Assembly (NCBI GenBank): GCA_042577045.1
Contig: JBHPEK010000001.1
Coordinates: 15,173 to 79,172 of the forward strand
Direction: 5' to 3'
DNA from: Patescibacteria group bacterium
Lineage (GTDB): Bacteria; Patescibacteriota; Minisyncoccia; JAHISW01; Tagabacteraceae
Length of the DNA: 64,000 bases
Shown one piece after another: positions 52-63,044 of the stretch. Each line of letters starts with the position of its first letter. The stretch's first letter is position 1. A program made the position numbers and the translations under genes. The notes below the pieces were generated by a model. That model had not been told where the DNA came from. It made no database searches and saw nothing but the letters and a program-made list of their open reading frames with translations.

Positions 52-80
52 CAACTATCGAGATCCGATCTCAATAGTTG
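52..80. repeat. TCSGA-centred palindromic element, class E (CAACTAT outer arms)
   Basis: caactatcgagaTCCGAtctcaatagttg; 14-nt arms with 1 mismatch, centre C at 66. Confidence 0.8.
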
Positions 81-196
81 AAAATAACTTTTTCTAATTT
101 ATAGCAACTTCTGCTCCAGAATACAATAGATAGTGAGTTCCAAACCCGCCCAAGGCGGATAAACTCCATCCCCACAGGTCACTACAAAAGCAAAAA

Positions 197-218
197 CCCC
201 GAGTGTTTCCACTGGGGG
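197..218 (-). terminator. Rho-independent terminator of CDS 287-601
   Basis: ccccgagtg/cactgggg stem with a T-run on the minus strand. Confidence 0.6.
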
Positions 219-286
219 TTTAGATTGTTACTCATTATTGAATCAACTCAGAATATTTCTCAATCACACTTTGGTCATTACTAGAC

Positions 287-601
287 CTAATCAAAACCAG
301 TTCTGGTGTACTGACATGTCTCCGTCTTCTTCCCAAAGTCTCTGGCAAGAGCGAAATCTTCTTTTATACCCGGCCAAAACATAATAGGCCAGGAAAATGA
401 AGCCAAGAGTCCACACATAACAGCCAACAAGGAAGTTGCTATATCGTTTATACCCGCCAACAGCGACTGCATGCCGAACGTAAACATCCCACACCATAAT
501 CCTTCCATACAAACTGCGATAACCGAAAAACTAATTGCCTGAAACCATGCACTCAGTTTTGTTTTAGGTGCTCCCTGCATTAAGTTGTAAACTACAATCA
601 T
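287..601 (-). CDS. small integral membrane protein, unknown function
   Basis: ORF 287-631; AAGGAGG lies 6 nt upstream of the internal ATG at 601; hydrophobic helices. Confidence 0.5.
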   Translation of the reverse strand: MIVVYNLMQGAPKTKLSAWFQAISFSVIAVCMEGLWCGMFTFGMQSLLAGINDIATSLLAVMCGLLASFSWPIMFWPGIKEDFALARDFGKKTETCQYTRTGFD

Positions 602-772
602 ATCATCCTCCTTTTCAATGTTCTTTTCCACCTCAAAAATACCACAACCACCATATTTGTCAAGAGGTAAGAAAACAGCCCGAAATAAGCTACTTTATCG
701 CCTCTTTCCTCACAGGTGACAGATTTATAGTCATAAATATTGAAGATGTTAGATTGGACTAGAAAACAAAAA

Positions 773-792
773 ACAGTCGCGAATGCGACTGT
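773..792. terminator. bidirectional stem-loop terminator
   Basis: acagtcgc/gcgactgt stem flanked by an A-run and a T-run. Confidence 0.6.
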
Positions 793-803
793 TTTAATTT
801 TAT

Positions 804-1025
804 TTACCCATAATGCGGGATGCTTCTTGTTTTTCCTGTCTGAACTTTTTCCCAAACGAGAGTCTCTCCTTCATCGCTACTCTTGTCTACCGCCATTCCG
901 AGTTTAGCGAATCTTATCAAAAGAGCAGTAACGTTTGTTTCTTCTTTTGCTGCGTGATCTTTAAGCGCTTCCATTAAATTATCGGGGAACATTGCATTTA
1001 CTCTCTTCAAAACATCAACCTCCAT
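804..1025 (-). CDS. putative ribbon-helix-helix (CopG/Arc-like) small protein
   Basis: N-terminal KRVNAMFPDNLMEALKDHAAKEETNVTALLIRFAKLG resembles an RHH fold; overlaps the upstream gene by 11 nt. Confidence 0.45.
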   Translation of the reverse strand: MEVDVLKRVNAMFPDNLMEALKDHAAKEETNVTALLIRFAKLGMAVDKSSDEGETLVWEKVQTGKTRSIPHYG

Positions 1026-1491: not shown

Positions 1492-1524
1492 CACCTGCGT
1501 CGACGTCGGACGTCGACGCAGGTG
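1492..1524. repeat. TCSGA-centred palindromic element, class C (GCGTCGACG arms)
   Basis: Perfect 33-nt odd palindrome cacctgcgtcgacgtc-g-gacgtcgacgcaggtg. Confidence 0.9.
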
Positions 1525-1547
1525 AACAGATACCAAAAAAGTTCAAT

Positions 1548-1570
1548 CCATCGACATCGGATGTCGGGAT
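1548..1570. repeat. TCSGA-centred element, class A (CCATCGACA arms), degenerate right arm
   Basis: ccatcgacaTCGGAtgtcgggat. Confidence 0.7.
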
Positions 1571-1584
1571 TTAAAAACAAAAAA

Positions 1585-1602: not shown

Positions 1603-1614
1603 GATTTTTTTATT

Positions 1615-8276: not shown

Positions 8277-8320
8277 TAAACTTAGCAAATACTTACGATC
8301 GTAAGTATTTGCTAAGTTTA
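8277..8320. repeat. perfect 44-nt even palindrome centred on ACGATCGT (family P)
   Basis: taaacttagcaaatacttacga|tcgtaagtatttgctaagttta. Confidence 0.9.
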
Positions 8321-9893: not shown

Positions 9894-10712
9894 TTACTTA
9901 TTTTTAAAAAATATCTTATTACCAAAACGAAGGTCTACGTATTCAATCTCTGCCAAACTCCTAGAAACATCTTCTTTTAGAAAAACTTCTAAATTGTCAT
10001 ATAACAATTCTAGATTATCACGACTGTCAAATATTAAATACCAGCCTTCAAATTGATCACCTTCTTTCTCAGGATAAAGCTCAAAAACCTTTTCTGGCTT
10101 TAGGTAAATTTCTGAAACCCTAAAAACATCTGCTAGTTTGTCCTTAAAATTTAAAATATCCCTAAAATCATTTTCCTCAAGAAGATTTTCTCCTATTTGA
10201 GGTTGAATAGGACGGAAGTCAACAAACCGAACAAAAACCCCAGGAGAAAAAAGTGGAGACTCTTCAAAGATATAGCCCGTCCTATCCAAAAATGAACACT
10301 CTTTATCTTCGTTCAGTTCTGTACAAATAATTGCCACCGGAACCCTTTCCTCAACAACAACATCCAGCCCCGAAAAAAATTTTCTAGAAATTCTCAAACT
10401 TTTTAATTGGGAATACTTATCCAACAGAGCAGTTTGGGTTTTGTTTGCGGGAAAAGAAAAAATTCTGTTGTTAGGAATTACGAAAAAAGTTTTAGCACTT
10501 AAGGTTTTGTTGATTATCTCACCGAGCTCTTTCTCCCAAAAAGAACTGGCGCCAGTAAAAACAACTTCTTTAATTTTAAAATTGTCTAGAAAAAAAAGAA
10601 AGAAAATTACTCCAAATAAAAAGAGAACGACAAATAACCATAACAAAAAAGCGCGAAGAAAGAGTCTTTTCCTTTTCTTGCGTTTAGCAGATGATAAAAC
10701 GTTGCGAGACAC
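9894..10712 (-). CDS. FtsQ-like (POTRA) cell-division protein
   Basis: Basic N-terminus, single TM helix, then a POTRA-like IKEVVFTG region. Confidence 0.5.
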   Translation of the reverse strand: MSRNVLSSAKRKKRKRLFLRAFLLWLFVVLFLFGVIFFLFFLDNFKIKEVVFTGASSFWEKELGEIINKTLSAKTFFVIPNNRIFSFPANKTQTALLDKYSQLKSLRISRKFFSGLDVVVEERVPVAIICTELNEDKECSFLDRTGYIFEESPLFSPGVFVRFVDFRPIQPQIGENLLEENDFRDILNFKDKLADVFRVSEIYLKPEKVFELYPEKEGDQFEGWYLIFDSRDNLELLYDNLEVFLKEDVSRSLAEIEYVDLRFGNKIFFKNK

Positions 10713-10716
10713 AATG

Positions 10717-11985
10717 TTATTTCGGAGAAATTACATCTTGACCAACATATTTCTGCAAAACCTTAGGAACAACAACAGAACCGTCCTCCTGTTGGTTGTT
10801 TTCTAAGATAGAAATTAAAATTCTCGGTGTGGCAATTACGGTGTTATTCAATGAATGAACAAAAGAAGTCTCCCCCTCTGTATCTTTGTAGCGAATATTT
10901 AATCGTCTCGTCTGAAAATCATGAAAATAAGAAGCAGAGTGTGTTTCTCCATATTGTTTCCTACTAGGTATCCAGCATTCGATGTCATACTTTTTAACCT
11001 GACCCAAACCAAGATCTCCTCCACAGTTAACAACAACCCTGTAAGGAAGCTTCAGTTCTCTAACAATTCTTTCGGAATTATTAGTAATTTCTTCATGCCA
11101 TTTTACAGATTCTTGGTGGTCGGCCTTACATAAAATAATCTGTTCAACTTTCATAAATTCATGGAGACGGTAAAGACCTTTAGTGTCTTTACCGTGGCTT
11201 CCTACTTCTCTTCGATAACAAGGAGAAAAAGCAACATATTTTTTAGGAAGATCTTCCTCAAGTAAAACTTCGTTCAGATGATAACCCATCATAGGCACCT
11301 CGGCCGTACCAGCCAAATATAAATCATCTTGAGTTTGATAAATCTCATCTTTTCCTTGAGGAAGCCATCCTGTTCCCTTGAAGCTATCTTCCCTAGTGAG
11401 AGATGGCGCAACAAAAGGCACGAAGCCATCTTTCCTCATCTCGTCCATAGAAAACTGCCAAATAGCAAAAGAAAGAAGTACTGCCTCGTTTTTTAGAAAA
11501 TAACCCCTAAATCCCGAAACTTTGGTTCCTCTTTCAAAATCAGCCAAGTCTAGGTCTTTCATTATTTCAATATGGTCTTTTGGCTCAAAATTAAAATTCG
11601 GAATTTCGCCCCATTTCTTTTCTTCTTTATTGTCTTCATCAGAGTCTCCTTCCGGAACCGAAGGGTCTGGAATATTTGGCACCTCCAACATCAACATTTG
11701 CCATTTTTCTTGAATTTCCTTTAATTCTTTTTCACTCTGTGATAGTCTGTCTTTCAAAACTTTCATCTCGTTAATAAGACTTTGCCTTTTGTCCTCGTCT
11801 TCCATTGTGGAAATTTTTTCAGTTTCCGTGTTTTGTTCGGCACGTAATTTTTCTGTTTCTTGAATTAATTTTCGGCGAACATCGTCAACTTCTAGGAGCT
11901 TCTCGACATTAAAATCTACATGCTTTTTTCGCACAGCTTCTTTGACTAAATCCTTGTGTTCACGTATAAATTTAATATCTAACAT
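10717..11985 (-). CDS. serS: seryl-tRNA synthetase
   Basis: N-terminal coiled coil plus class II core (TAEVP, FRRE-like, GETHSASYFHDFQ). Confidence 0.95.
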   Translation of the reverse strand: MLDIKFIREHKDLVKEAVRKKHVDFNVEKLLEVDDVRRKLIQETEKLRAEQNTETEKISTMEDEDKRQSLINEMKVLKDRLSQSEKELKEIQEKWQMLMLEVPNIPDPSVPEGDSDEDNKEEKKWGEIPNFNFEPKDHIEIMKDLDLADFERGTKVSGFRGYFLKNEAVLLSFAIWQFSMDEMRKDGFVPFVAPSLTREDSFKGTGWLPQGKDEIYQTQDDLYLAGTAEVPMMGYHLNEVLLEEDLPKKYVAFSPCYRREVGSHGKDTKGLYRLHEFMKVEQIILCKADHQESVKWHEEITNNSERIVRELKLPYRVVVNCGGDLGLGQVKKYDIECWIPSRKQYGETHSASYFHDFQTRRLNIRYKDTEGETSFVHSLNNTVIATPRILISILENNQQEDGSVVVPKVLQKYVGQDVISPK

Positions 11986-12043: not shown

Positions 12044-12472
12044 TTATGGGCAAGTGCCAAACCTTAAAGGGAAACTAACGCAATCTAACTTCCCTTCTAA
12101 ATAATTGCAAACCATCTCCTTTACATAGCTTGCTAGGGGAATGGTAATAACTGCATCGCTGGTTGGAATAAGATAGAAATGTAAAACGGTAAAATCACGT
12201 TTTGTCTCCAAAAGACAGTACGACAGTACGTTGTCTCCTGGAACCACTTCTTTTTTCATAAAAAGCATTTCCGTTTCGTTTTCAAAAATTTTACACATCC
12301 CACGACTAGTGAGAACTTCTTCTATCGTTTTTGCGGGCTTTCTAAACTGCCCGAAAAAATAAAAGAACTCTCTCTTGTCTGTTTCATCATCCGGCAAACG
12401 GACTTTGAACAAGTAAGGAACCTTTTGCGTCTCGCCTACAATCTCTGGGTCTTTCATTGCCTTAAACTTCAT
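12044..12472 (-). CDS. hypothetical protein, FPLRFGTCP-terminus family, copy 1
   Basis: GGGAGG RBS before the ATG at 12472; paralog of 13167-13592. Confidence 0.65.
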   Translation of the reverse strand: MKFKAMKDPEIVGETQKVPYLFKVRLPDDETDKREFFYFFGQFRKPAKTIEEVLTSRGMCKIFENETEMLFMKKEVVPGDNVLSYCLLETKRDFTVLHFYLIPTSDAVITIPLASYVKEMVCNYLEGKLDCVSFPLRFGTCP

Positions 12473-12980
12473 TATTTTCCTCCCTTTCTTCAAGAAGTCT
12501 TGCCTCCTTGAGTTTAATTTCTTGTTTGTAAGTTTCAATTTCAGTAACTATTTTTTCTAAACTTGCCAGGTTGTATATCCTGTCTTTCCAACTAAGATAC
12601 TCCCCCAGCCATGTTTCTAGCTCAAAAGTATCTTTAGTTGTATTGGCCACTTTAATTAGGCCTCTTAGTTTTTTAGACATTGGAAAGTTTGGTGGAGTTA
12701 GTCTTTCAATTTCACGAAGCTTTTCAAAAGCATCTTTCATTATCCTCTCAAACTTTTGTTCAGGAAATTTTTCTTTCCACTGAATTGACTGGATAAGAGA
12801 CATGTAGCTAACAAACAAAATTACCGATATCAAAAAATTAGGCATAAACGACTTCACGGTGAGTAGAACAAAAATAACAAAAAAAAGAATGCTAACTAGA
12901 ATCAATGGCAACACTGCCCCCGGAAACTTACAGTAAAAACTTGCAAACAACGTTTTATGCCAGTTCAATTCTTTCTTCAT
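12462..12980 (-). CDS. membrane protein with C-terminal coiled coil
   Basis: Two TM helices; overlaps the downstream gene by 11 nt. Confidence 0.5.
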   Translation of the reverse strand: MKKELNWHKTLFASFYCKFPGAVLPLILVSILFFVIFVLLTVKSFMPNFLISVILFVSYMSLIQSIQWKEKFPEQKFERIMKDAFEKLREIERLTPPNFPMSKKLRGLIKVANTTKDTFELETWLGEYLSWKDRIYNLASLEKIVTEIETYKQEIKLKEARLLEEREENNEV

Positions 12981-13059: not shown

Positions 13060-13070
13060 CATATGTTTTT

Positions 13071-13095
13071 TCCATCGACATCCGATGTCGATGGA
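13071..13095. repeat. TCSGA-centred element, class A, perfect
   Basis: tccatcgacatc-c-gatgtcgatgga. Confidence 0.9.
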
Positions 13096-13135
13096 AATCT
13101 AAAAACTATCGGAAGAACAGTAAGCAATAAAAAAA

Positions 13136-13151
13136 CCCACACAAGTGTGGG
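13136..13151 (-). terminator. terminator of 13167-13592 (copy of 12013-12028)
   Basis: Identical cccacacaagtgtggg hairpin and flanks. Confidence 0.6.
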
Positions 13152-13166
13152 TTTTTGGTTTTCTTT

Positions 13167-13592
13167 TTACGGGCAAGTGCCAAATCTTAAAGGAAATTGA
13201 TGGCAGTCTAACTCTTCATCTAAGTGACTACAAACTGTACTCTGCACAAGATTTGCCAAATCACGTGTAATACAAGCGCCTCTCAACGGAATGAGATAGA
13301 AATGTGCCGTGGTAGACAGTTCTCCATTTTTTGCTTCCAAAAGACAAACCAACAAAACATTGTCTCCTGGTGTTTTCTCTTTTCTCATAAAAAGAATGTA
13401 ATCATCTTTTGAGAGGACTTTTCCTCCTCTCCGCTCAGCAATGATTCTGGCGACGGTTTCTGCATTTTCTGCAAACTGACCAAAAAAATAGAAAAGCTCT
13501 CTGGGATTATCTCCGACACACACCTTAAATAAATACGGATCCACCTCTCTTAGTATCTCTGGATTCTTCATTGCCTCTACGTTTGTTTCCAT
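13167..13592 (-). CDS. hypothetical protein, FPLRFGTCP-terminus family, copy 2
   Basis: GGGAGG RBS before the ATG at 13592; shares LFYFFGQF, PGDNVL, HFYLIP and FPLRFGTCP with copy 1. Confidence 0.65.
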   Translation of the reverse strand: METNVEAMKNPEILREVDPYLFKVCVGDNPRELFYFFGQFAENAETVARIIAERRGGKVLSKDDYILFMRKEKTPGDNVLLVCLLEAKNGELSTTAHFYLIPLRGACITRDLANLVQSTVCSHLDEELDCHQFPLRFGTCP

Positions 13593-13740
13593 TATTCCTC
13601 CCTCGGCCGTAGCCCGTCCTATGGGCGAGGCCCTCTTCAAAGTTATTTTCAAATATCAACTTGTAAGTAGATTGCCAGTTTCAAGTGATTTTGTCAACCA
13701 CAATTGAGTTGTCTCGATAATAAACATCGAGACTTGTTTA

Positions 13741-13767
13741 ATCCATCGACATCCGATGTCGATGGAT
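13741..13767. repeat. TCSGA-centred element, class A, perfect 27 nt
   Basis: atccatcgacatc-c-gatgtcgatggat, 12 nt downstream of the RAYT-1 stop. Confidence 0.9.
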
Positions 13768-13779: not shown

Positions 13780-14493
13780 CTAATCTAAAACGATATCTCT
13801 TATCTTTTCTAAATCAATTTCAGACCACTCTCTCAAAAACTTCTCGTAGTCTTTCTTTCCCCTAAACTGATCTGTGATTATTTCTGTTCCGGATAAAATT
13901 AAATCTTCAAAATCGTCTTGTAGATAACTTTTCAAACTAGACCATGGGTATTTAATAAGTTCTTTCTTTTTTAAATTCCAACTTTTTAAATTCCCCCCTC
14001 TCCAGTCTTTGCTGTCAATAAAATCTAATGGGTTAAGATGGATATACAAAGAAAGATGAAGAAGATAATTATTTGAATCAATATGTTTTGCTTTAAAATT
14101 ACTTTCAAAAAGAGAACCTTTCCGTTCTTGTTTGGTGTTTATATATTTTGCAATTGAAATATTACTCTTACGAAGAAAAGTACTTATTCCACCCTCCGTT
14201 AATTCTTTTACCAAAAGGTGATAGTGATTCGGCATAATTGAATAAGCAACGACATCAACAAGTTTATCACCTCTCCATGCTATATCTACTGCTTTTCTTA
14301 AGCTTACATTTTTGTAATTTCTTAAATAATCAAACGCCTTACTTGATTCTGTTGAATTTGCCAACAAAAAACATTGAGTAAGTTTATTTGCATTCTCATA
14401 GTTCTCAAATTCCGGAATATTTAATATTGTTCTGCTGTAAACGTGATAATATTCTCCTGAAACAAATTGGTCTTTTCTTATCATAATATTCAT
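13780..14493 (-). CDS. HUH/Y1 tyrosine transposase, IS200/REP-associated (RAYT-like), copy 1
   Basis: MPNHYHLLV (HUH) and LYIHLNP (catalytic Tyr) about 60 aa apart. The longer ORF to 14607 only translates the upstream hairpin. Confidence 0.8.
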   Translation of the reverse strand: MNIMIRKDQFVSGEYYHVYSRTILNIPEFENYENANKLTQCFLLANSTESSKAFDYLRNYKNVSLRKAVDIAWRGDKLVDVVAYSIMPNHYHLLVKELTEGGISTFLRKSNISIAKYINTKQERKGSLFESNFKAKHIDSNNYLLHLSLYIHLNPLDFIDSKDWRGGNLKSWNLKKKELIKYPWSSLKSYLQDDFEDLILSGTEIITDQFRGKKDYEKFLREWSEIDLEKIRDIVLD

Positions 14494-14503: not shown

Positions 14504-14526
14504 CCATCGACATCGGAAGTCGATGG
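14504..14526. repeat. TCSGA-centred element, class A with a hybrid inner arm
   Basis: ccatcgacaTCGGAagtcgatgg; exact reverse complement of 15046-15068. Confidence 0.9.
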
Positions 14527-14621: not shown

Positions 14622-15002
14622 ATGACAGAAATAAAGAAGATTTCCCGAGAAAATTGGGAAAGTTCTAGAGATAAGTGGGTTAAGATAGTTGAAAAAACAA
14701 AAAATCGTGAAAGATTTGTTCATCAACATGGTTTTCCCTATCTCCGAGCAAGTGGCAAATGCGGATATTGTTTTAATGTTTTTAGTTATTGCAAAAGTTG
14801 CCATCTTAACAAAACAAAAGTGGGAATAAGAAGTATTTGTGGTGATGTCTATTGGGGTGTTCCGAAGACTATTTTTTGGAAATACGTCAACGAAATGAGG
14901 AAATCGATCGAAGATCCCAATTCTGTTAATTGGGATACGGCAACGAAGTGGGCTCAGCAAATACTAGATGCGATTCTAGCAGACGAGCCCGAAAAAGAAT
15001 AA
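14622..15002 (+). CDS. Cys-rich small protein, paralog C
   Basis: GGAAAGGAGG RBS; MTEIKKISRENWES...; CGYC...CKSC...C; divergent from RAYT-1. Confidence 0.7.
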   Translation: MTEIKKISRENWESSRDKWVKIVEKTKNRERFVHQHGFPYLRASGKCGYCFNVFSYCKSCHLNKTKVGIRSICGDVYWGVPKTIFWKYVNEMRKSIEDPNSVNWDTATKWAQQILDAILADEPEKE

Positions 15003-15011
15003 AAACAAAAA

Positions 15012-15028
15012 CCCCGACGATGTCGGGG
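15012..15028 (+). terminator. terminator of paralog C
   Basis: ccccgac-gat-gtcgggg plus a T-run. Confidence 0.7.
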
Positions 15029-15045
15029 CTTTTTAATTTTTACCG

Positions 15046-15068
15046 CCATCGACTTCCGATGTCGATGG
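15046..15068. repeat. TCSGA-centred element, class A hybrid (inverted copy of 14504-14526)
   Basis: ccatcgactTCCGAtgtcgatgg. Confidence 0.9.
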
Positions 15069-18344: not shown

Positions 18345-18380
18345 TTTAGCATTTACTTACGATCGTAAGTAAATGCTAAA
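18345..18380. repeat. perfect 36-nt palindrome centred on ACGATCGT (family P)
   Basis: tttagcatttacttacga|tcgtaagtaaatgctaaa. Confidence 0.9.
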
Positions 18381-26461: not shown

Positions 26462-28498
26462 ATGTCAACCATGAAATATCACATCATCACATACGGCTGT
26501 GGAGCCAATCATGCCGATTCAGAAAGGATCGAAGCGAAGCTTCACGCACTTGGACACACAAAAGCCGCCAACAAGAAGGTGGCTAATTTGATAGTGATTA
26601 ATTCTTGCTCGGTGCGCAAGTCAGCTATGGATCGTCTTTATGCACAAATAAACAAACTAAAAACCAAGAAAAAGAAAGTAATTTTGGCAGGATGCATCTT
26701 AGAAAAAGACCTAAAAAATTTGAAAGACAAGGTAAGTGAAGTTTGGCACCCAGATGAGTACTTCGACTTAATGCCAATTTATGCAGATGAAGTTGGTGTG
26801 TCTGTCCCCATTATGACGGGGTGCAACAACTTTTGCACATATTGTGCTGTTCCTTACACCCGTGGACGAGAAAAATCTCGCCCAGCAAAAGATATTGTCG
26901 ATGAAATAAAGAAACTTGTGGCAAGCCCCGCCGGGCGGGATAAAAAAGAAATTTGGCTATTGGGTCAAAACGTAAACAGTTACCGATCTGGTAAAACAAA
27001 CTTTCCAAAACTTTTACAGAAAATAGATAAAATACCCGGCAAGTTTTGGGTTCGTTTTATTTCCCCACACCCAAAAGACTTCTCGATTGAATTAATAAAA
27101 ACAATTAAAAAATGTGAAAAAATTACTGAATACATAAACGTGCCTGTTCAGTCTGGAGACAATGAAATACTAAAAAGAATGAATAGAAACTACACGCGCG
27201 AACACTATATAAAACTTGTAAACAGAATTAGAAAAGAAATACCAGACGCATCTATATCCACAGATACCATTGTTGGCTTCCCTGGGGAAACAAAAAAACA
27301 ATTCTTGAATACTAAAGATTTATACAAAAAATTAAAATTTGATATGGCATTTCTAGCTGAATACTCTCCTCGTCCGGGGACTTTTTCAGCAATGATGATG
27401 AAAGACAACGTAAGCCATACCGAAAAAGAAAAACGAAAAAAAGAACTAAATGACATTTTAACCAAAACTGCACTAGAGAATAATAAAAAATATATTGGAA
27501 AAACAGTAGAAGTTTTAAATGGACGAACTCGCACCAATAAGCTGGTTACCCTACACGATACCGAGTATCGTGTAGGGCCAAGTGAATTCTTGAATGTAAA
27601 AATTACAGGAGCTGAATCTTGGAGACTAAAAGGGGAAATTGTTAAAAAAATAGTAGTTGTGCTTGGGCCTACTGCTTCTGGAAAAAGTGGTTTAGCTGTT
27701 GAGATAGCTCAAAAATTCCCTTCTGAGATTATCTCTGCAGATTCTAGACAAATTTACAAAGGAATGAATATCGGTAGTGGAAAAATAACAAAAAAGGAAA
27801 TGAAAGGAATAAAACATCATCTTCTTAACATAGTTAGCCCAAGAAAAATATATTCGGCAGGAGAATTCAAAAAAGAAGCTCAAAAATGTATCGAAGGAAT
27901 ATTGAAACAAGACAAAACGCCTATCATTTGTGGTGGAACAGGTTTTTATATCAACTCGCTTTTGGGTGGAAACATTGCCGAAGTAGAACCAGATTGGAAC
28001 TTGAGAAAAAAACTTGAGGAAAAAACTACAAAACAACTTTTTGGCCAACTGAAAAAACTAAAACCCCAAAGAGCAAAAAATATTGATTCCCAAAACAAAC
28101 GCCGACTAATACGGGCTATTGAAATAGCCAAATCTGCATCGAAGTCGGACTTCGACGCAATATCGAAGTCCGACTTCGATGTGTTGTATTTAGGAATTAA
28201 AAAAGACGGAGAAAAGCTAAAAAAAATAATTGATAAGAGGGTGGACGAAATGATTGAAGAAGGATTAGAAAAGGAAGTAAAAAAACTTGTTAAAAAATAT
28301 GGGTGGACGAAGACTTTAAAAAATACAATTGGATACCAAGAATGGAAAGAAGACAATTCAGAAGAAAAGATAAAGGCCCATTCACACCAATACGCAAAAA
28401 GACAAATAACTTGGTTTAAGAAATATGCACCGAAAACACACTGGCTTGGCAACAAAAAAGAAGCATTAAAATTAGTAAGAAACTTTTTAAAGAATTAA
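26462..28498 (+). CDS. miaB-miaA: fused MiaB (radical SAM methylthiotransferase) - MiaA (tRNA dimethylallyltransferase)
   Basis: UPF0004 N-domain, CNNFCTYC radical SAM cluster and TRAM domain, followed by a P-loop GPTASGKS and ADSRQIYKGMNIGS. Start is at 26462 or 26471. Confidence 0.85.
   Translation: MSTMKYHIITYGCGANHADSERIEAKLHALGHTKAANKKVANLIVINSCSVRKSAMDRLYAQINKLKTKKKKVILAGCILEKDLKNLKDKVSEVWHPDEYFDLMPIYADEVGVSVPIMTGCNNFCTYCAVPYTRGREKSRPAKDIVDEIKKLVASPAGRDKKEIWLLGQNVNSYRSGKTNFPKLLQKIDKIPGKFWVRFISPHPKDFSIELIKTIKKCEKITEYINVPVQSGDNEILKRMNRNYTREHYIKLVNRIRKEIPDASISTDTIVGFPGETKKQFLNTKDLYKKLKFDMAFLAEYSPRPGTFSAMMMKDNVSHTEKEKRKKELNDILTKTALENNKKYIGKTVEVLNGRTRTNKLVTLHDTEYRVGPSEFLNVKITGAESWRLKGEIVKKIVVVLGPTASGKSGLAVEIAQKFPSEIISADSRQIYKGMNIGSGKITKKEMKGIKHHLLNIVSPRKIYSAGEFKKEAQKCIEGILKQDKTPIICGGTGFYINSLLGGNIAEVEPDWNLRKKLEEKTTKQLFGQLKKLKPQRAKNIDSQNKRRLIRAIEIAKSASKSDFDAISKSDFDVLYLGIKKDGEKLKKIIDKRVDEMIEEGLEKEVKKLVKKYGWTKTLKNTIGYQEWKEDNSEEKIKAHSHQYAKRQITWFKKYAPKTHWLGNKKEALKLVRNFLKN
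28136..28158. repeat. TCSGA-centred element, class D, inside the miaA part (in frame)
   Basis: gcatcgaagtc-g-gacttcgacgc. Confidence 0.8.
28160..28182. repeat. TCSGA-centred element, class D, inverted partner, in frame
   Basis: atatcgaagtc-c-gacttcgatgt; with 28136-28158 it encodes SKSDFDAISKSDFD. Confidence 0.8.
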
Positions 28499-35372: not shown

Positions 35373-35421
35373 ATCTGTGTACTGAGAGAGATGTTGTCTC
35401 TCTCAGGAGCTTCCAACAGAT
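35373..35421. repeat. composite palindrome: class B outer arms with nested CTGAGAGAGA inner arms
   Basis: atctgtgtactgagagagatgttgtctctctcaggagcttccaacagat; 6 nt downstream of the RAYT-2 stop. Confidence 0.8.
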
Positions 35422-35427: not shown

Positions 35428-36081
35428 TTATTCTATTATGAACTCTTTTATGTCTTCGAACCTGCTCTTACTTTTGGTTTTGCAGCTTTTTAGAAATTCT
35501 TCATATTCGTCGTAATTTTTTAAAGGAGTCCATTTGTATTCTTCAAGAAATTTTTTTGCCTTACGCCAATCTTTTAAGCCCTCCTCTTTCCACCTAGGCT
35601 CAAAAAGATCTAGCGGGTTTAGATAAATATATTGTTTTAAATAATTTAAATATTCATCTTTATCTATTAGAACTGCCTTGAACTTTCCCTGAAACAAAAC
35701 TCCACTTCTCTCATATTTTTGATTAAAATAATTAGTGTAGCCAGTTCCCAGTTTTTGCATAAAACTGGAAATTCCGCCATCTTCCAATTGTTCAAGAATT
35801 AAATGAAAATGATTAGGCATTAAACAAGAGCCATAAAATTTAACTACGGACTCTCTGTCCTCTTTTTTTACTATGTGGGAAGTCGGACTTCCCACAGATA
35901 CCGCTCCTTCGCTAACACTTATACGACGAAACAGATTAATAGAAGAGTTCTTATCATTAAAATCTCTTAAGCTAAAAAGGAAGCGATGGTAGTCTTTGTC
36001 GTCCATAAAAACCTTACGTTTGTCTGTCCCACGGTTAAAAACGTGATAAAAATGGTTATTTGCAAATTGAGGTTTTTTCAT
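35428..36081 (-). CDS. HUH/Y1 tyrosine transposase, IS200/RAYT-like, copy 2
   Basis: MPNHFHLIL (HUH), QYIYLNP (Tyr). Start is at 36081 (MKKPQF...) or 36108. Confidence 0.8.
   Translation of the reverse strand: MKKPQFANNHFYHVFNRGTDKRKVFMDDKDYHRFLFSLRDFNDKNSSINLFRRISVSEGAVSVGSPTSHIVKKEDRESVVKFYGSCLMPNHFHLILEQLEDGGISSFMQKLGTGYTNYFNQKYERSGVLFQGKFKAVLIDKDEYLNYLKQYIYLNPLDLFEPRWKEEGLKDWRKAKKFLEEYKWTPLKNYDEYEEFLKSCKTKSKSRFEDIKEFIIE
35874..35896. repeat. class B element inside the RAYT-2 CDS (in frame, encodes VGSPTSH)
   Basis: tgtgggaagtc-g-gacttcccaca followed by gatacc. Confidence 0.85.
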
Positions 36082-36107
36082 TACTTTTATTATATATACA
36101 TATTTCA

Positions 36108-36134
36108 TCTGTGGGAAGTCCGACTTCCCACAGA
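36108..36134. repeat. TCSGA-centred element, class B, perfect 27 nt
   Basis: tctgtgggaagtc-c-gacttcccacaga. Confidence 0.9.
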
Positions 36135-36580: not shown

Positions 36581-37801
36581 TTATTTTATGGAAGAAATAT
36601 TTTTTAATTTGTTAATAATATCTGGAAGAACTTTCAAAACATAATCTATGTCTTCTTTTGTGTTTTCCTTTCCCAAGCTGAACCGAACCGAACCATGCAC
36701 GTGCTCATGGCATCGGCCAATCGCTTTTATAACGTGTGAGGGTTCTAAACTATCCGAACTACACGCCGAACCGGTTGAGGAGGCTATTCCTTTGGCATCA
36801 AGGTATAAAATAATAGATTCGCCCTCTACTCCATGAAAAGAAATATTTATATTATTTGGAAGTCGGGCGTCTAAAGATCCGTTAATTTTGGAGTCGGGAA
36901 AAGTTTTTGAAAGATTTTCTATAAAATAATTACGCAATTCAATAAGACGAGCAGATTCTTTTTCTCTTTCCTTTTGGGCAACCTCTAGCGCCTCAGCAAA
37001 GCCAACAATGGCAGGAATATTTTCTGTTCCTGGACGAAGACCAGATTCTTGCCCACCACCGTAAAGTATTGGCTCAATTTTTAATCCTCTCTTTTTGTAA
37101 AGGCACCCAACTCCTTTGGGCCCATAAATTTTAGAACCGTTTAAAGACATTAGATCTATTCCCAACTTGGCAACATTTAAATCTAGAAAGGACGGGGTTT
37201 GAATAGCGTCGGTATGAAAATATGGTGTTTCAACTCCGTGTTCTTTTCGATGAGCACGAATTATTTTAGCAATCCTAGAGATTGGTTGAATGGTTCCTAT
37301 TTCATTATTGGCATACATAATAGAAACCAAGATCGTCTCTTTTCGAAGTTCTTTTTTTAATTCTTCTAAATCCACCAGTCCATCTTTATCTACATCTAAA
37401 TAACTAACTTCGAATCCCTCTTTCTCAAGTTTCTCGCAAGCATGAAGGACCGCGTGATGTTCTATACTGGAAGTAATGATATGTGGGAAGTTGGACTTCG
37501 CACGCTTGTTGTGGGAAGTCCTGAGAGAGATCTGATCTCTCTCAGTGCCCACAGAACCAAAAATGGCCAGATTGTCACTCTCAGTACCACTAGAAGTAAA
37601 AATAATTTCGTCTGGACGTGCACTCAAAATTTCGGACACTTTATGTCGAGCGTCAGAGATGGCTTTTTTGGCAACTCGACCCTCCTCATAAATTGAAGAG
37701 GCATTTCCAAAATCCACAGACCAAAAAGGCTCCATTGCCTTTTTAACAGCTGGATCTAGTTGGGTAGTTGCTGCATGATCTAAATATATTCTTTTCATCA
37801 T
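36581..37801 (-). CDS. nifS: cysteine desulfurase (NifS/IscS) carrying an in-frame repeat insertion
   Basis: GTESDN, PLP Lys region SLNGSKIYGPKG, catalytic SSTGSACSS. Confidence 0.9.
   Translation of the reverse strand: MMKRIYLDHAATTQLDPAVKKAMEPFWSVDFGNASSIYEEGRVAKKAISDARHKVSEILSARPDEIIFTSSGTESDNLAIFGSVGTERDQISLRTSHNKRAKSNFPHIITSSIEHHAVLHACEKLEKEGFEVSYLDVDKDGLVDLEELKKELRKETILVSIMYANNEIGTIQPISRIAKIIRAHRKEHGVETPYFHTDAIQTPSFLDLNVAKLGIDLMSLNGSKIYGPKGVGCLYKKRGLKIEPILYGGGQESGLRPGTENIPAIVGFAEALEVAQKEREKESARLIELRNYFIENLSKTFPDSKINGSLDARLPNNINISFHGVEGESIILYLDAKGIASSTGSACSSDSLEPSHVIKAIGRCHEHVHGSVRFSLGKENTKEDIDYVLKVLPDIINKLKNISSIK
37482..37504. repeat. degenerate class B element inside nifS
   Basis: tgtgggaagtTggacttcGcacG. 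Confidence 0.7.
37510..37553. repeat. composite class B/inner-arm element inside nifS
   Basis: tgtgggaagtcctgagagagatctgatctctctcagtgcccaca. Confidence 0.85.
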
Positions 37802-41512: not shown

Positions 41513-41539
41513 TCTGTGGGAAGTCCGACTTCCCACAGA
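41513..41539. repeat. TCSGA-centred element, class B, perfect
   Basis: tctgtgggaagtc-c-gacttcccacaga followed by tacaaaaaa. Confidence 0.9.
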
Positions 41540-46883: not shown

Positions 46884-46931
46884 ATCTGTGGGAAGTCCTG
46901 AGAGAGATAGTATCTCTCTCAGGACACAGAT
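46884..46931. repeat. composite class B/inner-arm palindrome
   Basis: atctgtgggaagtcctgagagagatagtatctctctcaggacacagat followed by accaaaaaa. Confidence 0.85.
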
Positions 46932-46944
46932 ACCAAAAAACACC

Positions 46945-47008: not shown

Positions 47009-47031
47009 ACGTCGACGTCCGACGTCGACGT
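47009..47031. repeat. TCSGA-centred element, class C, perfect
   Basis: acgtcgacgtc-c-gacgtcgacgt, preceded by tttcaact. Confidence 0.9.
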
Positions 47032-47036
47032 TTATA

Positions 47037-47056
47037 CGACATCGGATGTCGATGGA
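47037..47056. repeat. class A element with truncated left arm
   Basis: cgacaTCGGAtgtcgatgga. Confidence 0.7.
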
Positions 47057-47071
47057 TTTAAAAACAAAAAA

Positions 47072-47095
47072 CCCCTGCTTCGCTAAAAACAGGGG
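47072..47095 (-). terminator. terminator of 47141-47755
   Basis: cccctg...cagggg flanked by A/T runs. Confidence 0.6.
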
Positions 47096-47140
47096 TTTTG
47101 GGTTTTAATTAAGTGACCAAGGACAAAGTGTCCAAGAAAG

Positions 47141-55992: not shown

Positions 55993-56001
55993 AAACTAAA
56001 A

Positions 56002-56017
56002 ACACCCTTAAGGGTGT
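56002..56017 (+). terminator. terminator
   Basis: acaccc-ttaa-gggtgt plus T7. Confidence 0.7.
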
Positions 56018-56030
56018 TTTTTTATTTCCT

Positions 56031-56059
56031 CAACTATGGAGGTCTAACCTCCATAGTTG
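56031..56059. repeat. class E element (CAACTAT arms), centre TCTAA
   Basis: caactatggagg-tctaa-cctccatagttg. Confidence 0.9.
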
Positions 56060-56069
56060 GTTGTGGGCA

Positions 56070-56098
56070 GTTGCTACGACGTCGGACTTCGTAGCAAC
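56070..56098. repeat. hairpin with a chimeric C/D TCSGA core
   Basis: gttgctacga-cgtcggact-tcgtagcaac. Confidence 0.85.
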
Positions 56099-56171
56099 GT
56101 AGCAAAAAGTCAAAATCGCTAGTTGGTTTTTGGTTATTGAAATGATGCAGTCGGGTCAATATTTCCTCAAC

Positions 56172-56196
56172 TGCGTCGACGTCCGACGTCGACGCA
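56172..56196. repeat. TCSGA-centred element, class C, perfect
   Basis: tgcgtcgacgtc-c-gacgtcgacgca. Confidence 0.9.
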
Positions 56197-56224
56197 AAAG
56201 TCAAAATCGCTAGTTTGGTTTACT

Positions 56225-56815
56225 TCAATAGCTCCCGGAGGTCCGACCTCCGGGAGGACAAAACCCCAAGTCTTTTGCATAACGATCTACAGAATATTTA
56301 CCATCATACATATTTGCAACATAATCGTATTCTTGCTGATTATTTATATCGATAGTTTTTTTAAGAATACTTTGGATACCAATGTCACCAATTAATTCTT
56401 GTTTATCAATATCAAAAGCAATAGAGTGTATTGTAAGCGGAACCCCCGACAGAAAATTCAAAATATCTGGTTCTAATCCTCGTTCTTGTATGGAATGGAT
56501 ATTGTCTAACGGTATTAAATCGATATCAATACTGTCGTTGTTTAATTTAAGATTTCCATGCTTATTTTCGATAGCTTTCCAGTCTTCTGGCAACACCAAA
56601 TCTTTTGTTGCTTTTTCTATGACAAAATCAAAATCCTTTGTAGATATTTTTAACCCATAAAGACCGCTTGCTATTGTTTTATATACAGCACCACCAATGA
56701 GCCATATTTTGCCTTTACAATTTTTTCTTGCAACTTCTAAGGCCAAATGATAGGCGGTATCATCTCGCAAAGCTGTTTGAAGAATATCTCTCAATTTATT
56801 TTTTTCCATGTTCAC
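56225..56815 (-). CDS. putative Pol-beta-superfamily nucleotidyltransferase
   Basis: WLIGGAVYK...DFDFVIE resembles the GG..(R/K)...DxD NTase motif. The last 10 codons are encoded by a palindromic element. Confidence 0.5.
   Translation of the reverse strand: MNMEKNKLRDILQTALRDDTAYHLALEVARKNCKGKIWLIGGAVYKTIASGLYGLKISTKDFDFVIEKATKDLVLPEDWKAIENKHGNLKLNNDSIDIDLIPLDNIHSIQERGLEPDILNFLSGVPLTIHSIAFDIDKQELIGDIGIQSILKKTIDINNQQEYDYVANMYDGKYSVDRYAKDLGFCPPGGRTSGSY
56232..56256. repeat. TCSGA-centred element, class F, perfect; forms the 3' end of CDS 56225-56815
   Basis: ctcccggaggtc-c-gacctccgggag (encodes PPGGRTSGS). Confidence 0.9.
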
Positions 56816-57378: not shown

Positions 57379-57405
57379 CTGCGTCGACGTCCGACGTCGA
57401 CGCAG
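57379..57405. repeat. TCSGA-centred element, class C, perfect 27 nt
   Basis: ctgcgtcgacgtc-c-gacgtcgacgcag. Confidence 0.9.
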
Positions 57406-58989: not shown

Positions 58990-59003
58990 CCATTTTTGTC
59001 TTG

Positions 59004-59074
59004 TGCGAGTACGGGGAATCGAACCCCGGTTTCGAGCTTGGGAAGCTCACGTCATGCCACTAAACTATACTCGC
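59004..59074 (-). tRNA. tRNA-Gly (CCC)
   Basis: Hand-folded cloverleaf; anticodon loop TTCCCAA; GGTTCGATTCC T-arm. Confidence 0.9.
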
Positions 59075-59083: not shown

Positions 59084-59164
59084 CCACTAAATCCCGACGC
59101 TCCACTTTGCGGAGGTCGAGGACCCTCGATTTCGCCTCTGGCGAACATCGGGGCTATACTCGCT
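59084..59164 (-). pseudogene. 19-nt copy of the tRNA-Gly 5' end split by a 62-nt structured insertion
   Basis: ccactaaa (59084-59091) plus ctatactcgct (59154-59164) are contiguous in the real tRNA at 59057-59075. Confidence 0.75.
59092..59153 (-). repeat. 62-nt GC-rich insertion predicted to fold as a four-way junction
   Basis: Outer stem cccgacg/catcggg plus three hairpins; two mismatches become G-U pairs only on the minus strand. Confidence 0.55.
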
Positions 59165-60358: not shown

Positions 60359-60377
60359 CGGTTATAATAGATATAGT

Positions 60378-60488
60378 ATGTATTTATCTAAACGTGGCAA
60401 AAAATTAAACAGGGCTGTTTGGATTTTCATCAGTATTTTGGCAATCATCGGAATGGTGGGTTACCTCATTGTACCACTTTTCTACTAA
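60378..60488 (+). CDS. possible 36-aa membrane peptide
   Basis: TATAAT at 60363-60368; MYLSKRGKKLNRAVWIFISILAIIGMVGYLIVPLFY. Confidence 0.35.
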   Translation: MYLSKRGKKLNRAVWIFISILAIIGMVGYLIVPLFY

Positions 60489-62311
60489 TCATTTCCTCCA
60501 CCCTGAATCATCTTCAAGAACACGTCGTGGGGAACATCTACCCGGCCGTGTTTGCTTAATTTTTTCTTCCCCTTTTTCTGCTTCTCTCGCACTTTCATTT
60601 TTCTAGTTATGTCTCCACCATATAGACCAGCGGTGACATCTTTTTTAAGAGCAGATATTTTTTGAGCAGCAATAATGCGCCCATTTGCTTTCACTTGGAT
60701 TTTAATCACAAACAGCGCTCTTGGCAAAAACCTCTTTAATTTCTCGGCTAAATTTTTTGCATCCCTTTGCATATCTTTTTTGGCAATCATTTTTGAAAAT
60801 GCTGGAATGACCTCTTCATTTAAAAGAACTTCTAAGCGAGTAAGTTCCCCCCTTCTATCTTCCATAATTTGATAACTAAAAGACGCATATCCAGACGTAG
60901 CACTTTTTAATTCTTCAAAAAAATTGTTCATCATTTCGCGTAGGGGCATTTGGGCTTTTAAAACAAATCTCTTCTGCTCACCAAATCCTTCTGTATCTCC
61001 CACCATGGCATCTCGTCTTTTTAAGACTTGCATAACTTCTCCCAACTTATCAAAAGGAGTTATAATTTTTACTTCAACCCATGGTTCGAGAATTTTATCT
61101 ATTTGAAAATGTTCAGGAAAAAGCGCTGCTGAATAAATCTCTTTTTTATTGCCATTTTTATCTTCTATTTTGTAAACCACGCTGGGAGTAGCAACCACAA
61201 CAGCAAGCTTAAACTCACGCTTTAGGCGTTCCACAATAATTTCAAGATGGAGCATTCCTAAAAAACCACAACGAAATCCACGCCCCAAAACACCACTTTC
61301 CTCTTCTTCAAAATCTAAAGAGCTGTCTGAAAGCTTCAATCTTTCTAACGACTGTTTTAAGTCCGTAAAATCGTCTTGAGACTCTGGGTATATACTAGCC
61401 CAAACAACTGGCGCGGGTTGTTTATATCCCTTTAGCGCCCCCAAGGTACTACCTTTGGAAAGAAGTGTATCTCCAACAGAGGCAACACCTGCCTCTTTAA
61501 CATTCGTTACAACATATCCAATTTCTCCTGTTTTTAGATCTGGAGTTTCTAGGGGGGTGGGGCTAAGAATGCCAATTTCCCCAACTGTAAAATTTAGACC
61601 AGCTTGATGTAAAAATACCTTATCACCTTTTTTGATTTGGCCATCTGTGCATCGTACATATAAAATAATACCTTTGTGAGGTGAATACTCGAAATCAAAA
61701 ACCAAACCCCTGAATCCACACGACACCGAGTTTCGTGTATCTACACGAAACTCGGTGTCGTGTGGGTGTGGAGGTGGGATACGAGAAATAATTTCTTTGA
61801 GCAGGGCCTCTACGCCTTCCCCTGTTTTAGCTGATACTTCTAAAATATCTTTTTCCTCGCAAGACAAAATTTCCAAAATTTCTTGTTTCGTCTCTGGGGT
61901 CTGTGCATTCGGACTATCTATCTTGTTAATAACGGGAACTATGGTTAACCCCAACTCTTTTGCCATTTCTAAGTTACTAATTGTTTGCGCTTGAACTCCT
62001 TGAGTGGCATCTACTAAAAGTACTGCCCCCTCAACAGCCTTAAGAGAACGCGACACCTCGTAAGAAAAATCTATATGTCCTGGAGTATCAATCAAATTGA
62101 GTTGATACCCCTCAAAACTCATTCGGACTGGTTGCATTTTTATGGTAATACCTCTTTCTCTCTCTAACTCCATTTGATCTAAAACTTGTTCTTTCATTTT
62201 TCTCTTCTCTATGGTCGCAGTCAATTCCAAGAACCGATCAGCCAAAGTTGACTTACCGTGGTCAATATGCGCAATAATACTAAAATTTCTAATATTGTTT
62301 TTTTCTTGCAT
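60485..62311 (-). CDS. lepA: translation elongation factor 4 (LepA) carrying an in-frame palindrome
   Basis: G-domain AHIDHGKST, DTPGH, NKID; LepA-specific C-terminus. Confidence 0.95.
   Translation of the reverse strand: MQEKNNIRNFSIIAHIDHGKSTLADRFLELTATIEKRKMKEQVLDQMELERERGITIKMQPVRMSFEGYQLNLIDTPGHIDFSYEVSRSLKAVEGAVLLVDATQGVQAQTISNLEMAKELGLTIVPVINKIDSPNAQTPETKQEILEILSCEEKDILEVSAKTGEGVEALLKEIISRIPPPHPHDTEFRVDTRNSVSCGFRGLVFDFEYSPHKGIILYVRCTDGQIKKGDKVFLHQAGLNFTVGEIGILSPTPLETPDLKTGEIGYVVTNVKEAGVASVGDTLLSKGSTLGALKGYKQPAPVVWASIYPESQDDFTDLKQSLERLKLSDSSLDFEEEESGVLGRGFRCGFLGMLHLEIIVERLKREFKLAVVVATPSVVYKIEDKNGNKKEIYSAALFPEHFQIDKILEPWVEVKIITPFDKLGEVMQVLKRRDAMVGDTEGFGEQKRFVLKAQMPLREMMNNFFEELKSATSGYASFSYQIMEDRRGELTRLEVLLNEEVIPAFSKMIAKKDMQRDAKNLAEKLKRFLPRALFVIKIQVKANGRIIAAQKISALKKDVTAGLYGGDITRKMKVREKQKKGKKKLSKHGRVDVPHDVFLKMIQGGGND
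61716..61765. repeat. perfect 22-bp-arm inverted repeat inside lepA
   Basis: ccacacgacaccgagtttcgtg-tatcta-cacgaaactcggtgtcgtgtgg. Confidence 0.9.
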
Positions 62312-62385
62312 ATTTATTCCTCGTGTTTTACTCTATAATTAGAGCAGAAAAACGGCTCTTTCACAAATAAAATGGAGGTGGCGTA

Positions 62386-62973
62386 ATGAAAAAAGGACGT
62401 ATACATTTAAATATACTTTTATTATTTTCTCTGTTTTTAATGTTTGGTTGTCAAACGATATTACTTCCAGTTTCCCAAAACACCATCACCTCTCCGTTCA
62501 AAAGCTATAAAGAAGCAGGAGATGTTTATATCTATGAGATACAGGAAGGAAAGACAACTGGAGAAGAACTAACGATACTTGGCATGGGCCACACCAGTCC
62601 AAATGTAGAAACATGGGACCACATAACTGTGGAAAAAATGTTTATGCATAATCCGAACATAAGGTTTGAAGACTTGCGAGAAAATGTTCAGACGTTTCTT
62701 AATGCAAAAAACAGAGGATTGGCTCTTAAAATCAGTTTCGGAGAGACAAAGAAAAAGTCAAAAGGAAACGTAATTCTCCATTTTTTAAATCTTTTAAGGA
62801 TCGAAAAAACAAGCGGATGGAACTTTGAAGGACTTATTTTGCTGGTAGACAATGTAGTCGTTTACAAACTCATGCCGCCAAAAGGAATTGTCTTTATTGA
62901 CAAAGAAACCGTCAAAAGAACTCCGCTAGGACCTCTTACAAATATTTCAGACGTTCCTCGCATATTTCCATAA
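62386..62973 (+). CDS. lipoprotein, unknown function
   Basis: Signal peptide with lipobox LMFGC; GGAGGTGG RBS. Confidence 0.6.
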   Translation: MKKGRIHLNILLLFSLFLMFGCQTILLPVSQNTITSPFKSYKEAGDVYIYEIQEGKTTGEELTILGMGHTSPNVETWDHITVEKMFMHNPNIRFEDLRENVQTFLNAKNRGLALKISFGETKKKSKGNVILHFLNLLRIEKTSGWNFEGLILLVDNVVVYKLMPPKGIVFIDKETVKRTPLGPLTNISDVPRIFP

Positions 62974-62979
62974 ACAAAA

Positions 62980-62995
62980 CCCCACCCTTGTGGGG
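62980..62995 (+). terminator. terminator
   Basis: ccccac-cctt-gtgggg plus T6. Confidence 0.7.
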
Positions 62996-63017
62996 TTTTT
63001 TATTTTATGATAACTCC

Positions 63018-63044
63018 TCTGTGGGAAGTCGGACTTCCCACAGA
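63018..63044. repeat. TCSGA-centred element, class B, perfect
   Basis: tctgtgggaagtc-g-gacttcccacaga followed by tac. Confidence 0.9.

Follow-up and report, generated by a model that had tools for sequence, protein, structure and literature searches.

Repetitive extragenic palindromes (REPs) and the REP-associated transposases (RAYTs) have been studied almost wholly in Proteobacteria, and the genomes of Patescibacteria (known also as candidate phyla radiation, CPR) are in general described as very small. Here we compare with the described systems a family of short palindromes, mostly centred on TCCGA or TCGGA (TCSGA), and two transposase-like genes, RAYT-A and RAYT-B, from a 64-kb stretch of a Patescibacteria chromosome (contig JBHPEK010000001.1, 37% G+C). 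This stretch, called the window below, is the only portion of the genome that was analysed. According to the earlier literature a REP family belongs to each tnpA_REP gene, inverted doublets (REPINs) are formed, and REPs are placed downstream of genes or, in frame, inside them (PMC6006769; PMC3733652; PMC5581495). Intragenic GTAG/CGTC REPs were reported by Di Nocera et al. 2013 (PMC3733652). One genome can contain several REP families with a separate transposase for each, and in subclass 2.4 of TnpA_Y1 (Quentin et al. 2018) 'double-foot' REPs as well as in-frame REPs inside tnpA_REP, between HuH and Tyr, have been described (PMC6006769). A preference of RAYTs for large genomes and their absence from Mollicutes have been reported (PMC6006769).

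The palindromes of the window are very probably REP-type hairpin elements of REP/RAYT systems residing in a CPR chromosome. They are not a new kind of element; what we find is a REP/RAYT-type system in an unusual form and in a CPR host. The initial annotation of the window, made from the sequence, had considered several stem types within one genome to be unusual, a premise that finds no support, as multiple REP families with their own transposases had already been described (PMC6006769). Its statement that no equivalent is described for CPR agrees with our finding that no paper in the literature searched links REP, RAYT or IS200 with CPR.

The palindromes are far more frequent than expected by chance. 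The window contains 19 perfect palindromes of odd length whose arms are 8 nt or longer, and 13 of these have a TCCGA or TCGGA centre. In 100 dinucleotide-preserving shuffles a mean of 2.1 (maximum 6) was obtained for all such palindromes and of 0.03 (maximum 2) for the TCSGA-centred ones. Chance or low complexity as the source of the palindromes is ruled out by this comparison (13 against 0.03 expected). When a few mismatches are tolerated, 19 of the 85 TCSGA sites lie within long palindromes, with centres at 66, 1508, 1559, 13083, 13754, 14515, 15057, 28147, 28171, 35885, 36121, 41526, 47020, 47044, 56084, 56184, 56244, 57392, and 63031, and the other 66 sites lie outside palindromes. Five related palindromes have another or a degenerate centre (35382-35406, 37480-37503, 37510-37563, 46887-46940, and 56031-56059). 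The density in the window is about one hairpin per 3 kb. The palindromes first annotated are thus real, and the enrichment over shuffled sequence proposed there as a check is found; their number is about 19-24 and not about 30.

The palindromes were sorted by their arms into classes (A to G), and the two arms of a palindrome co-vary, as had been stated. Six or more arm classes had been claimed; the classes exist, but A, C, D, and E are built on one common skeleton, TCGA-NN-TCSGA-NN-TCGA, and the six classes really represent about three or four lineages. Eleven copies have C and eight have G as central base, independent of the flanks. We looked for a fixed orientation rule, comparing the centre base with the flank and the upstream, internal, and downstream copies with each other, and found none. 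For the palindromes as single-stranded DNA the predicted structure is a hairpin of -12 to -15 kcal/mol in which a T-A pair closes a CSG triloop. Some copies form inverted doublets. The sequence GTGG is present in class B only, inside the stem. The recurring flanks described in the initial annotation are also real; part of the CAACT flank is, however, the foot of a longer palindrome, and at one class B copy (41513-41539) the run of A residues on the 3' side corresponds to the complementary strand of the T-tail of the neighbouring terminator. An Rfam scan of the window gave four tRNAs and no other RNA family.

The two Y1/HUH tyrosine transposase-like genes are both situated on the minus strand, RAYT-A at 13780..14493 (237 aa) and RAYT-B at 35428..36081 (217 aa). 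Neither these genes nor the intragenic palindromes had been noticed in the initial annotation. They match Pfam Y1_Tnp, the IS200-like HUH transposase family, with 27.4 and 36.1 bits, respectively, at a cut-off of 23 bits. The proteins are 32% identical, and both have kept the HUH motif (HYH in RAYT-A, HFH at residues 91-93 of RAYT-B) and the tyrosine of the YIxLNP motif (YIHLNP in RAYT-A, YIYLNP with Tyr151 in RAYT-B). H91, H93, and Y151 (RAYT-B numbering) are invariant across 17 homologues. With a profile of these homologues the best match in the PDB was 4ER8 (E = 0.0088), the HUH and Tyr motifs being aligned, in contrast to the single-sequence PDB search, which was uninformative. 4ER8 is the E. 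coli RAYT bound to a REP hairpin. It was also the top fold match of an AlphaFold (AF2) model of RAYT-B with a pLDDT of 74 (E = 5e-5, target-normalised TM-score 0.65), followed by the TnpA proteins of IS608 and ISDra2.

Each of the two genes is accompanied by its own palindromes. RAYT-A is bracketed by class A palindromes, one 13 nt past the stop codon (13741..13767) and one with an imperfect tip upstream of the gene, about 10 nt from the start codon (14504..14526); two more class A palindromes are found within 1 kb. For RAYT-B, a class B palindrome is located upstream (36108..36134) and another one in frame inside the open reading frame (ORF; 35874..35896), where it encodes VGSPTSH upstream of the HUH motif, and a class G palindrome within degenerate class B arms lies downstream (35382..35406). 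The internal palindrome falls in a loop modelled with low confidence (residues 48-72, pLDDT < 50). A tblastn search of the window with both proteins (E <= 10) revealed no third RAYT gene or pseudogene for classes C-F.

Homologues of RAYT-B number thousands, and all of those with a named source are from Patescibacteria; the match of 100% identity lies on an 88-kb contig of a Patescibacteria metagenome-assembled genome at NCBI. With a hidden Markov model (E <= 1e-30) a full scan gave at least 1,567 clusters formed at 50% identity. We examined 80 homologue loci fetched from at least 546 confirmed places in species-representative genomes, almost all of them metagenome-assembled genomes of the Parcubacteria/Paceibacteria type. 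In 54 of the 80 loci the homologue has one and the same palindrome on its upstream and its downstream side. Between the end of the upstream copy and the matched coding region there is a median distance of about 30 nt, and the downstream copy lies 440-800 nt, mostly 620-730 nt, from the start of the match. These flanking hairpins are perfect palindromes, and the loop of the upstream copy is mostly the reverse complement of the downstream one. The stem sequence differs in nearly every genome. Two genomes carry two loci each, and in one of them the two loci (L017 and L042) have different palindromes.

A copy inside the ORF is found in 16 of the 54 loci at nt +134 to +192, upstream of the HUH codons and in the same place as in RAYT-B. 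The in-ORF copy is bimodal over the 54 loci, having either at most two mismatches to the flanking copy or no resemblance to it. In the pairs of upstream and internal copies the loop has the same orientation in about ten cases and is inverted in about six. For class C, a metagenome scan yielded 17 matches, 14 of which are chance matches on high-GC contigs; the three relevant ones are low-GC contigs from one sample. On a low-G+C metagenome contig a homologue of RAYT-A (58% identity) is followed after 8 nt by a class C palindrome and preceded by a C/A hybrid. Class C is therefore to be assigned to the RAYT-A type.

The cognate palindromes of 52 loci were aligned on their centre and compared position by position. 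A occurs at position -5 from the centre in 49 of the 52 loci, G at position -4 in 41, and G at position -3 in 44. These AGG/CCT closing pairs are conserved, and the five central bases and the outer stem are variable. Within the hairpin the three closing pairs adjoining the loop evolve most slowly, and mismatch in them follows protein divergence (Spearman 0.62); the outer stem evolves fastest. Among pairs of proteins with 60% identity or more, a fraction of 0.17 of the loop and of 0.34 of the outer stem is mismatched. When the hairpins are arranged in the order of the protein tree, sisters have common tips (for example tgaca, tcttg, tgcga, or ACG.tcNga.CGT) and different stems. The clade of RAYT-B has T(C/T)S(G/A)A loops with variable closing pairs.

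An activity recognising the centre had been postulated in the initial annotation. The slow closing pairs, which track protein divergence, support a reading of the tip, and the likely agent are the RAYT-like enzymes. The view that TCSGA itself is the invariant had to be abandoned: a 76%-identical relative has kept the CTGTGGGAAG stem with TTSAA replacing TCSGA, a compensated change, and the loop varies throughout the family. In these comparisons TCSGA is a clade-level variant rather than a universal feature.

From these results we predict that the hairpin is bound in single-stranded DNA via its tip, that cleavage and rejoining proceed through Tyr151, and that hairpins are copied in this way. 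When the DNA becomes single-stranded, for example during replication, the palindrome would fold into a hairpin, and the RAYT-like enzyme would bind it mainly at the tip, that is, the loop and about three closing pairs. Nearby single-stranded DNA could then be cleaved by the HUH-bound metal and the tyrosine, and the strand rejoined elsewhere, so that hairpins are copied or moved. The outer stem would require pairing only, which should permit compensated drift and a split into classes. Either strand would fold into an equivalent hairpin, which would explain why the central base can be C or G. The TCSGA centre would be common in this genome because its RAYT paralogues belong to the part of the family with T(C/T)S(G/A)A tips.

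Palindromes of the TCSGA family are also found in frame in coding regions, namely in RAYT-B (class B, see above), in MiaA, and in an IscS-type cysteine desulfurase. In the MiaA part of a MiaB-MiaA ORF a class D inverted doublet with the centres G and then C encodes SKSDFDAISKSDFD (28137..28181). The IscS gene contains a doublet (37480..37563) in which a class G palindrome is nested at the centre of a class B unit (37510-37563), and the second class B unit (37480-37503) has decayed. The same loop of IscS contains a clean class B inverted doublet in one related locus (L102) and a single unit in another (L101), both arms of which are changed (GTTGG/CCAAC) by compensated G>T/C>A exchanges. Four proteins of about 70% identity (P0128, P0130, P0133, and P0229) have no insert. 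The comparison shows that the insertion is polymorphic for presence and absence, that pairing is maintained within a coding region, and that nesting takes place at the hairpin centre.

A more far-reaching interpretation is possible, albeit doubtful as a whole. There could be a very large, essentially CPR-wide lineage of RAYT-like proteins that is free of GTAG and reads the tip, with an actively maintained in-ORF hairpin upstream of HUH and with hairpin centres serving as insertion sites for other hairpins, and in some lineages, the present one among them, the hairpins would bloom, writing short peptides into the loops of essential proteins of a very small genome. The in-ORF copy is either almost perfect or missing altogether, which suggests that it is actively maintained, for instance for self-regulation or self-targeting. 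The use of the hairpin centre as insertion site would result in the nested B/G composites.

Several results weigh against the interpretation as a REP/RAYT system. The best NCBIfam match of the two proteins, REP_Tyr_transpos (NF047646), reaches 40.2 and 36.1 bits compared with a cut-off of 80; RAYT-A and RAYT-B are distant relatives outside the curated NCBIfam RAYT equivalog. Within the 64-kb window classes C, D, E, F, and G have no cognate gene. The GT[AG]G tag was found at one of 54 upstream and one of 54 downstream hairpins compared with 6.6% at random positions, and the residues contacting GTAG in E. coli are mostly not conserved in the profile alignment with 4ER8, where only a Gln aligns. 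The mechanism of E. coli is therefore not simply transferable. Conserved flank tags at the hairpin foot were not found across the 54 loci either. In the window the loop is constant and the closing pairs vary, which is the reverse of the family-wide trend. Finally, most loci have few copies or none at a distance from the gene (0-2 in each locus of up to 20 kb). The genome of the window therefore has an unusually expanded population. Taken as a whole, the family may act rather like an insertion sequence (IS) with hairpin ends.

This leads to the question whether we deal with autonomous ISs similar to IS200/IS605, with the palindromes as element ends, the dispersed palindromes as solo ends or as the equivalent of miniature inverted-repeat transposable elements, and a purely selfish behaviour instead of a domesticated single-copy RAYT with its REP population. 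We regard this as rather unlikely, and yet of all alternatives it has most in its favour. The tight bracketing in 54 of the 80 loci with few copies elsewhere in most genomes would be expected from such elements, and the transposases of IS608 and ISDra2 are the next-best fold matches. Moreover, the locus L101 is syntenic with the window (RNase HII-IscS-NifU-HtrA-ClpB), and nifU and htrA are 9 nt apart there; in the window, a block consisting of REP-B, RAYT-B, REP-B/G, and a NUDIX gene is inserted between them. The RAYT-B orthologue of this relative is located between rpsF and ychF. The gene block has therefore moved, and this is the best argument for ISs. On the other hand, repeated near-identical element copies, a trait of IS200/IS605, were not found, as tblastn over the window gave only the two 32%-identical genes, and there is no tnpB. 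The proteins of 217-237 aa possess a C-terminal extension, whereas the matched TnpA chains of IS608 and ISDra2 comprise 126-152 residues, and 4ER8 is ahead of the IS transposases by sequence as well as by fold. The flanking hairpins are usually one perfect palindrome with reverse-complementary loops, which is the arrangement of RAYTs, and in this genome the dispersed hairpin copies outnumber the gene copies about tenfold.

Many palindromes lie just downstream of genes, and canonical terminators are found 9-34 nt from eight of them (at 1585, 13131, 15007, 35318, 41553, 47068, 55998, and 62976), so that they would often be transcribed. It was therefore considered whether they are mainly RNA elements, such as stabilisers of 3' ends, processing sites, attenuators, or unconventional terminators, with only a secondary link to the transposase. 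The predicted hairpins are stable, and the one upstream of RAYT-A, close to the start codon, could mask the ribosome-binding site. However, none of the single palindromes is terminator-like. A T-tract is missing, and the flanks are T-rich on the 5' side and A-rich on the 3' side, opposite to the polarity of a terminator; the only TCSGA element scoring as terminator-like, the intragenic class D doublet (28136-28182), does so by chance. Intrinsic terminators are excluded by the missing T-tract, the reversed tract polarity, and the true terminators alongside, and both the terminator scoring and the flank polarity bear out the earlier statement that the palindromes are not terminators but adjoin canonical ones. 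A function in RNA also has to contend with copies in frame in coding sequences and upstream of genes and with a centre base that flips regardless of gene direction, and it leaves the class-specific bracketing of the Y1 gene in 54 loci unexplained; we consider it improbable. Least credible, with hardly any probability, is that the palindromes are TCNGA sites bound or modified by a host protein, such as a dimeric regulator, a restriction-modification system, or a methyltransferase, with incidental arms. The centre is indeed constant across the arm classes in this genome, and TCGA recurs in A, C, D, and E. Nevertheless, the 66 TCSGA sites outside palindromes do not fit, the 11-16 perfect arm pairs are far beyond the need of such a site, the close relative has the class B stem with TTSAA, and the association with the Y1 gene is unexplained.

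Interpreted as a REP/RAYT system, the locus resembles the proteobacterial systems (E. coli TnpA_REP with 4ER8 and the three REPIN-RAYT pairs of Pseudomonas fluorescens SBW25) in that a Y1/HUH gene is bracketed by a dispersed hairpin, each of the two genes in the window goes with its own hairpin family, several families share a genome, and the hairpins form inverted doublets and lie mostly downstream of genes. In contrast to these systems, the 5' GT[AG]G guide tag is missing, the hairpins are perfect palindromes with a single central base instead of imperfect stems with bulges, the tip is conserved, the C-terminal extension is different, the proteins stay below the NCBIfam RAYT cut-off, and the host is a CPR bacterium with a reduced genome. 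With subclass 2.4 the system has in common that the hairpin is symmetric at both feet and that a REP is situated inside the transposase ORF, keeping the frame, in a peripheral loop. However, the in-ORF copy lies upstream of HUH and not between HuH and Tyr, and the GT[AG]G/C[TC]AC feet of subclass 2.4, for which we relied on the published description, are absent from the hairpins described here. The catalytic fold, the HUH and Tyr motifs, and the presumed recognition hairpins by the gene are shared with IS200/IS605 (IS608, ISDra2), whose single-strand transposition is the natural model. In contrast to these elements, the genes do not occur in multiple copies in the window, the proteins exceed theirs in length, and many solo hairpins are dispersed; their subterminal hairpins are imperfect and have the same orientation, whereas ours are identical perfect palindromes, mostly inverted. 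Rickettsia palindromic elements and intragenic REPs (PMC3733652) are likewise found in frame in loops of conserved proteins, as single units or dimers adding 8-30 residues, but belong to other sequence families; the elements described here are tied to an identifiable transposase family and are also present inside its own gene.

Some further observations concern the surroundings of the two transposase genes. The class B arm upstream of RAYT-B provides a -35-like TTCCCA 17 nt before a perfect TATAAT (36089-36117, minus strand), and transcription of RAYT-B could be controlled via the occupancy of this upstream class B hairpin or duplex. The class A palindrome upstream of RAYT-A (14504-14526) has an exact reverse complement 542 nt away (15046..15068, 12 nt from the terminator 15007-15033). 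The pair encloses a small Cys-rich ORF without Pfam match directly upstream of RAYT-A (14622-14960, minus strand) and may be cargo-carrying. In a relative's genome (locus L081) a class B stem with a 5-nt loop is located inside ychF (11372-11398), and downstream of the RAYT a hybrid palindrome (10688-10716) combines a class B foot (ATCTGTG) with a class A-like tip (CGACATC-g-GATGTCG). Feet and tips are therefore modules that can recombine.

The other palindromes are distributed over the window. At the left end lie a class E palindrome with one mismatch (CAACTATCGAGA-TCCGA-TCTCAATAGTTG, 52..80), an intergenic class C palindrome with 16-nt arms (1492..1524), and a degenerate class A palindrome between tandem paralogues, 11 nt from the terminator 1585-1602 (1545..1573). 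An intergenic class A palindrome (13069..13097) is separated by 33 nt from the terminator 13131-13156, and an intergenic class B palindrome (41513..41539) lies 13 nt after the terminator 41553-41577. Class G nested at the centre of class B is seen once more in an intergenic composite (46887..46940). It is followed by an intergenic class C palindrome (47009..47031), which forms a doublet with a class A-like one (47033..47055), the centres being 24 nt apart and the terminator 47068-47099 12 nt away. Just past the terminator 55998-56021, an E-like palindrome AGG.tctaa.CCT (56031-56059) and a class C variant (56070-56098) together span 56031..56098. A class C palindrome (56172..56196), a class F palindrome with CTCCCGGAGG arms and the AGG/CCT closing pairs of the family consensus (56232..56256), an intergenic class C palindrome (57379..57405), and a class B palindrome located between convergent genes (63018..63044; terminator 62976-62999 at a distance of 18 nt) complete the series. 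The palindromes 56031-56059 and 56172-56196 (region 56021-56222) have longer flanks in common, with TATTTCCTCAACT lying 5' and AAAAGTCAAAATCGCTAGTT(T)GGTTT lying 3' of the palindrome. Therefore, some palindromes travel in a unit of about 60-110 nt, or a local duplication has occurred. Palindromes are also located between the members of two small paralogous gene pairs without Pfam matches (12044-12538 / 13167-13652 and 1015-1425 / 1615-2007), which contain stretches of 84-87% identity; the genes of the former pair are followed by identical terminators (AAAAACCCACAC..GTGTGGGTTTTT).

The window also contains other repeats. MiaB (UPF0004 and radical SAM) and MiaA (IPPT) form a single ORF of 685 aa (26441-28498), and a 29-nt palindrome (CCCTACACGATAC-cga-GTATCGTGTAGGG, 27549-27577) encoding LHDTEYRVG is situated exactly at their junction; its insertion may therefore have fused both genes. 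In the LepA gene (60485-62311, minus strand) a perfect palindrome of 50 nt with 24-nt arms (61716-61765) separates the G domain from domain II without breaking the frame. It shares with the palindrome at the MiaB/MiaA junction a TACACGA(A/T)AC core and the peptide HDTE(F/Y)RV, and both belong to a separate family without a TCSGA centre. A third, even-length family with a CGATCG centre (TTAGCAxxTACTTACGATCGTAAGTAxxTGCTAA) occurs at 8277-8320, 18345-18380, and 25700-25728, with copies just after the PMT and TopA genes; the first two are terminator-like by score. In addition, a structured repeat of 43 nt is present in two copies of 77% identity, one in frame in the GyrB linker (48210-48252) and one beside tRNA-Gly (59003-59074) at 59090-59132. 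The latter lies between two copies of GCGAGTATAG, the sequence of the first 10 nt of the tRNA; the arrangement resembles a target-site duplication. Outside the window, three CPR IscS proteins (P0172, P0182, and P0196; locus L103) carry the peptide NLSRFTLPRSGxGSDAxQDF repeated in two different surface loops. This resembles a further repeat element that entered the same gene twice in frame.

The results indicate that a family related to RAYTs is widespread in a phylum with small genomes, contrasting with the reported preference of RAYTs for large genomes. The missing GTAG guide together with the conserved tip predicts a mode of recognition different from the described one. Streamlined genomes can apparently still host a thriving population of selfish or domesticated repeats, and in CPR metagenomes such repeats would generate variation in protein loops, cause breaks in assemblies, and supply strain markers.

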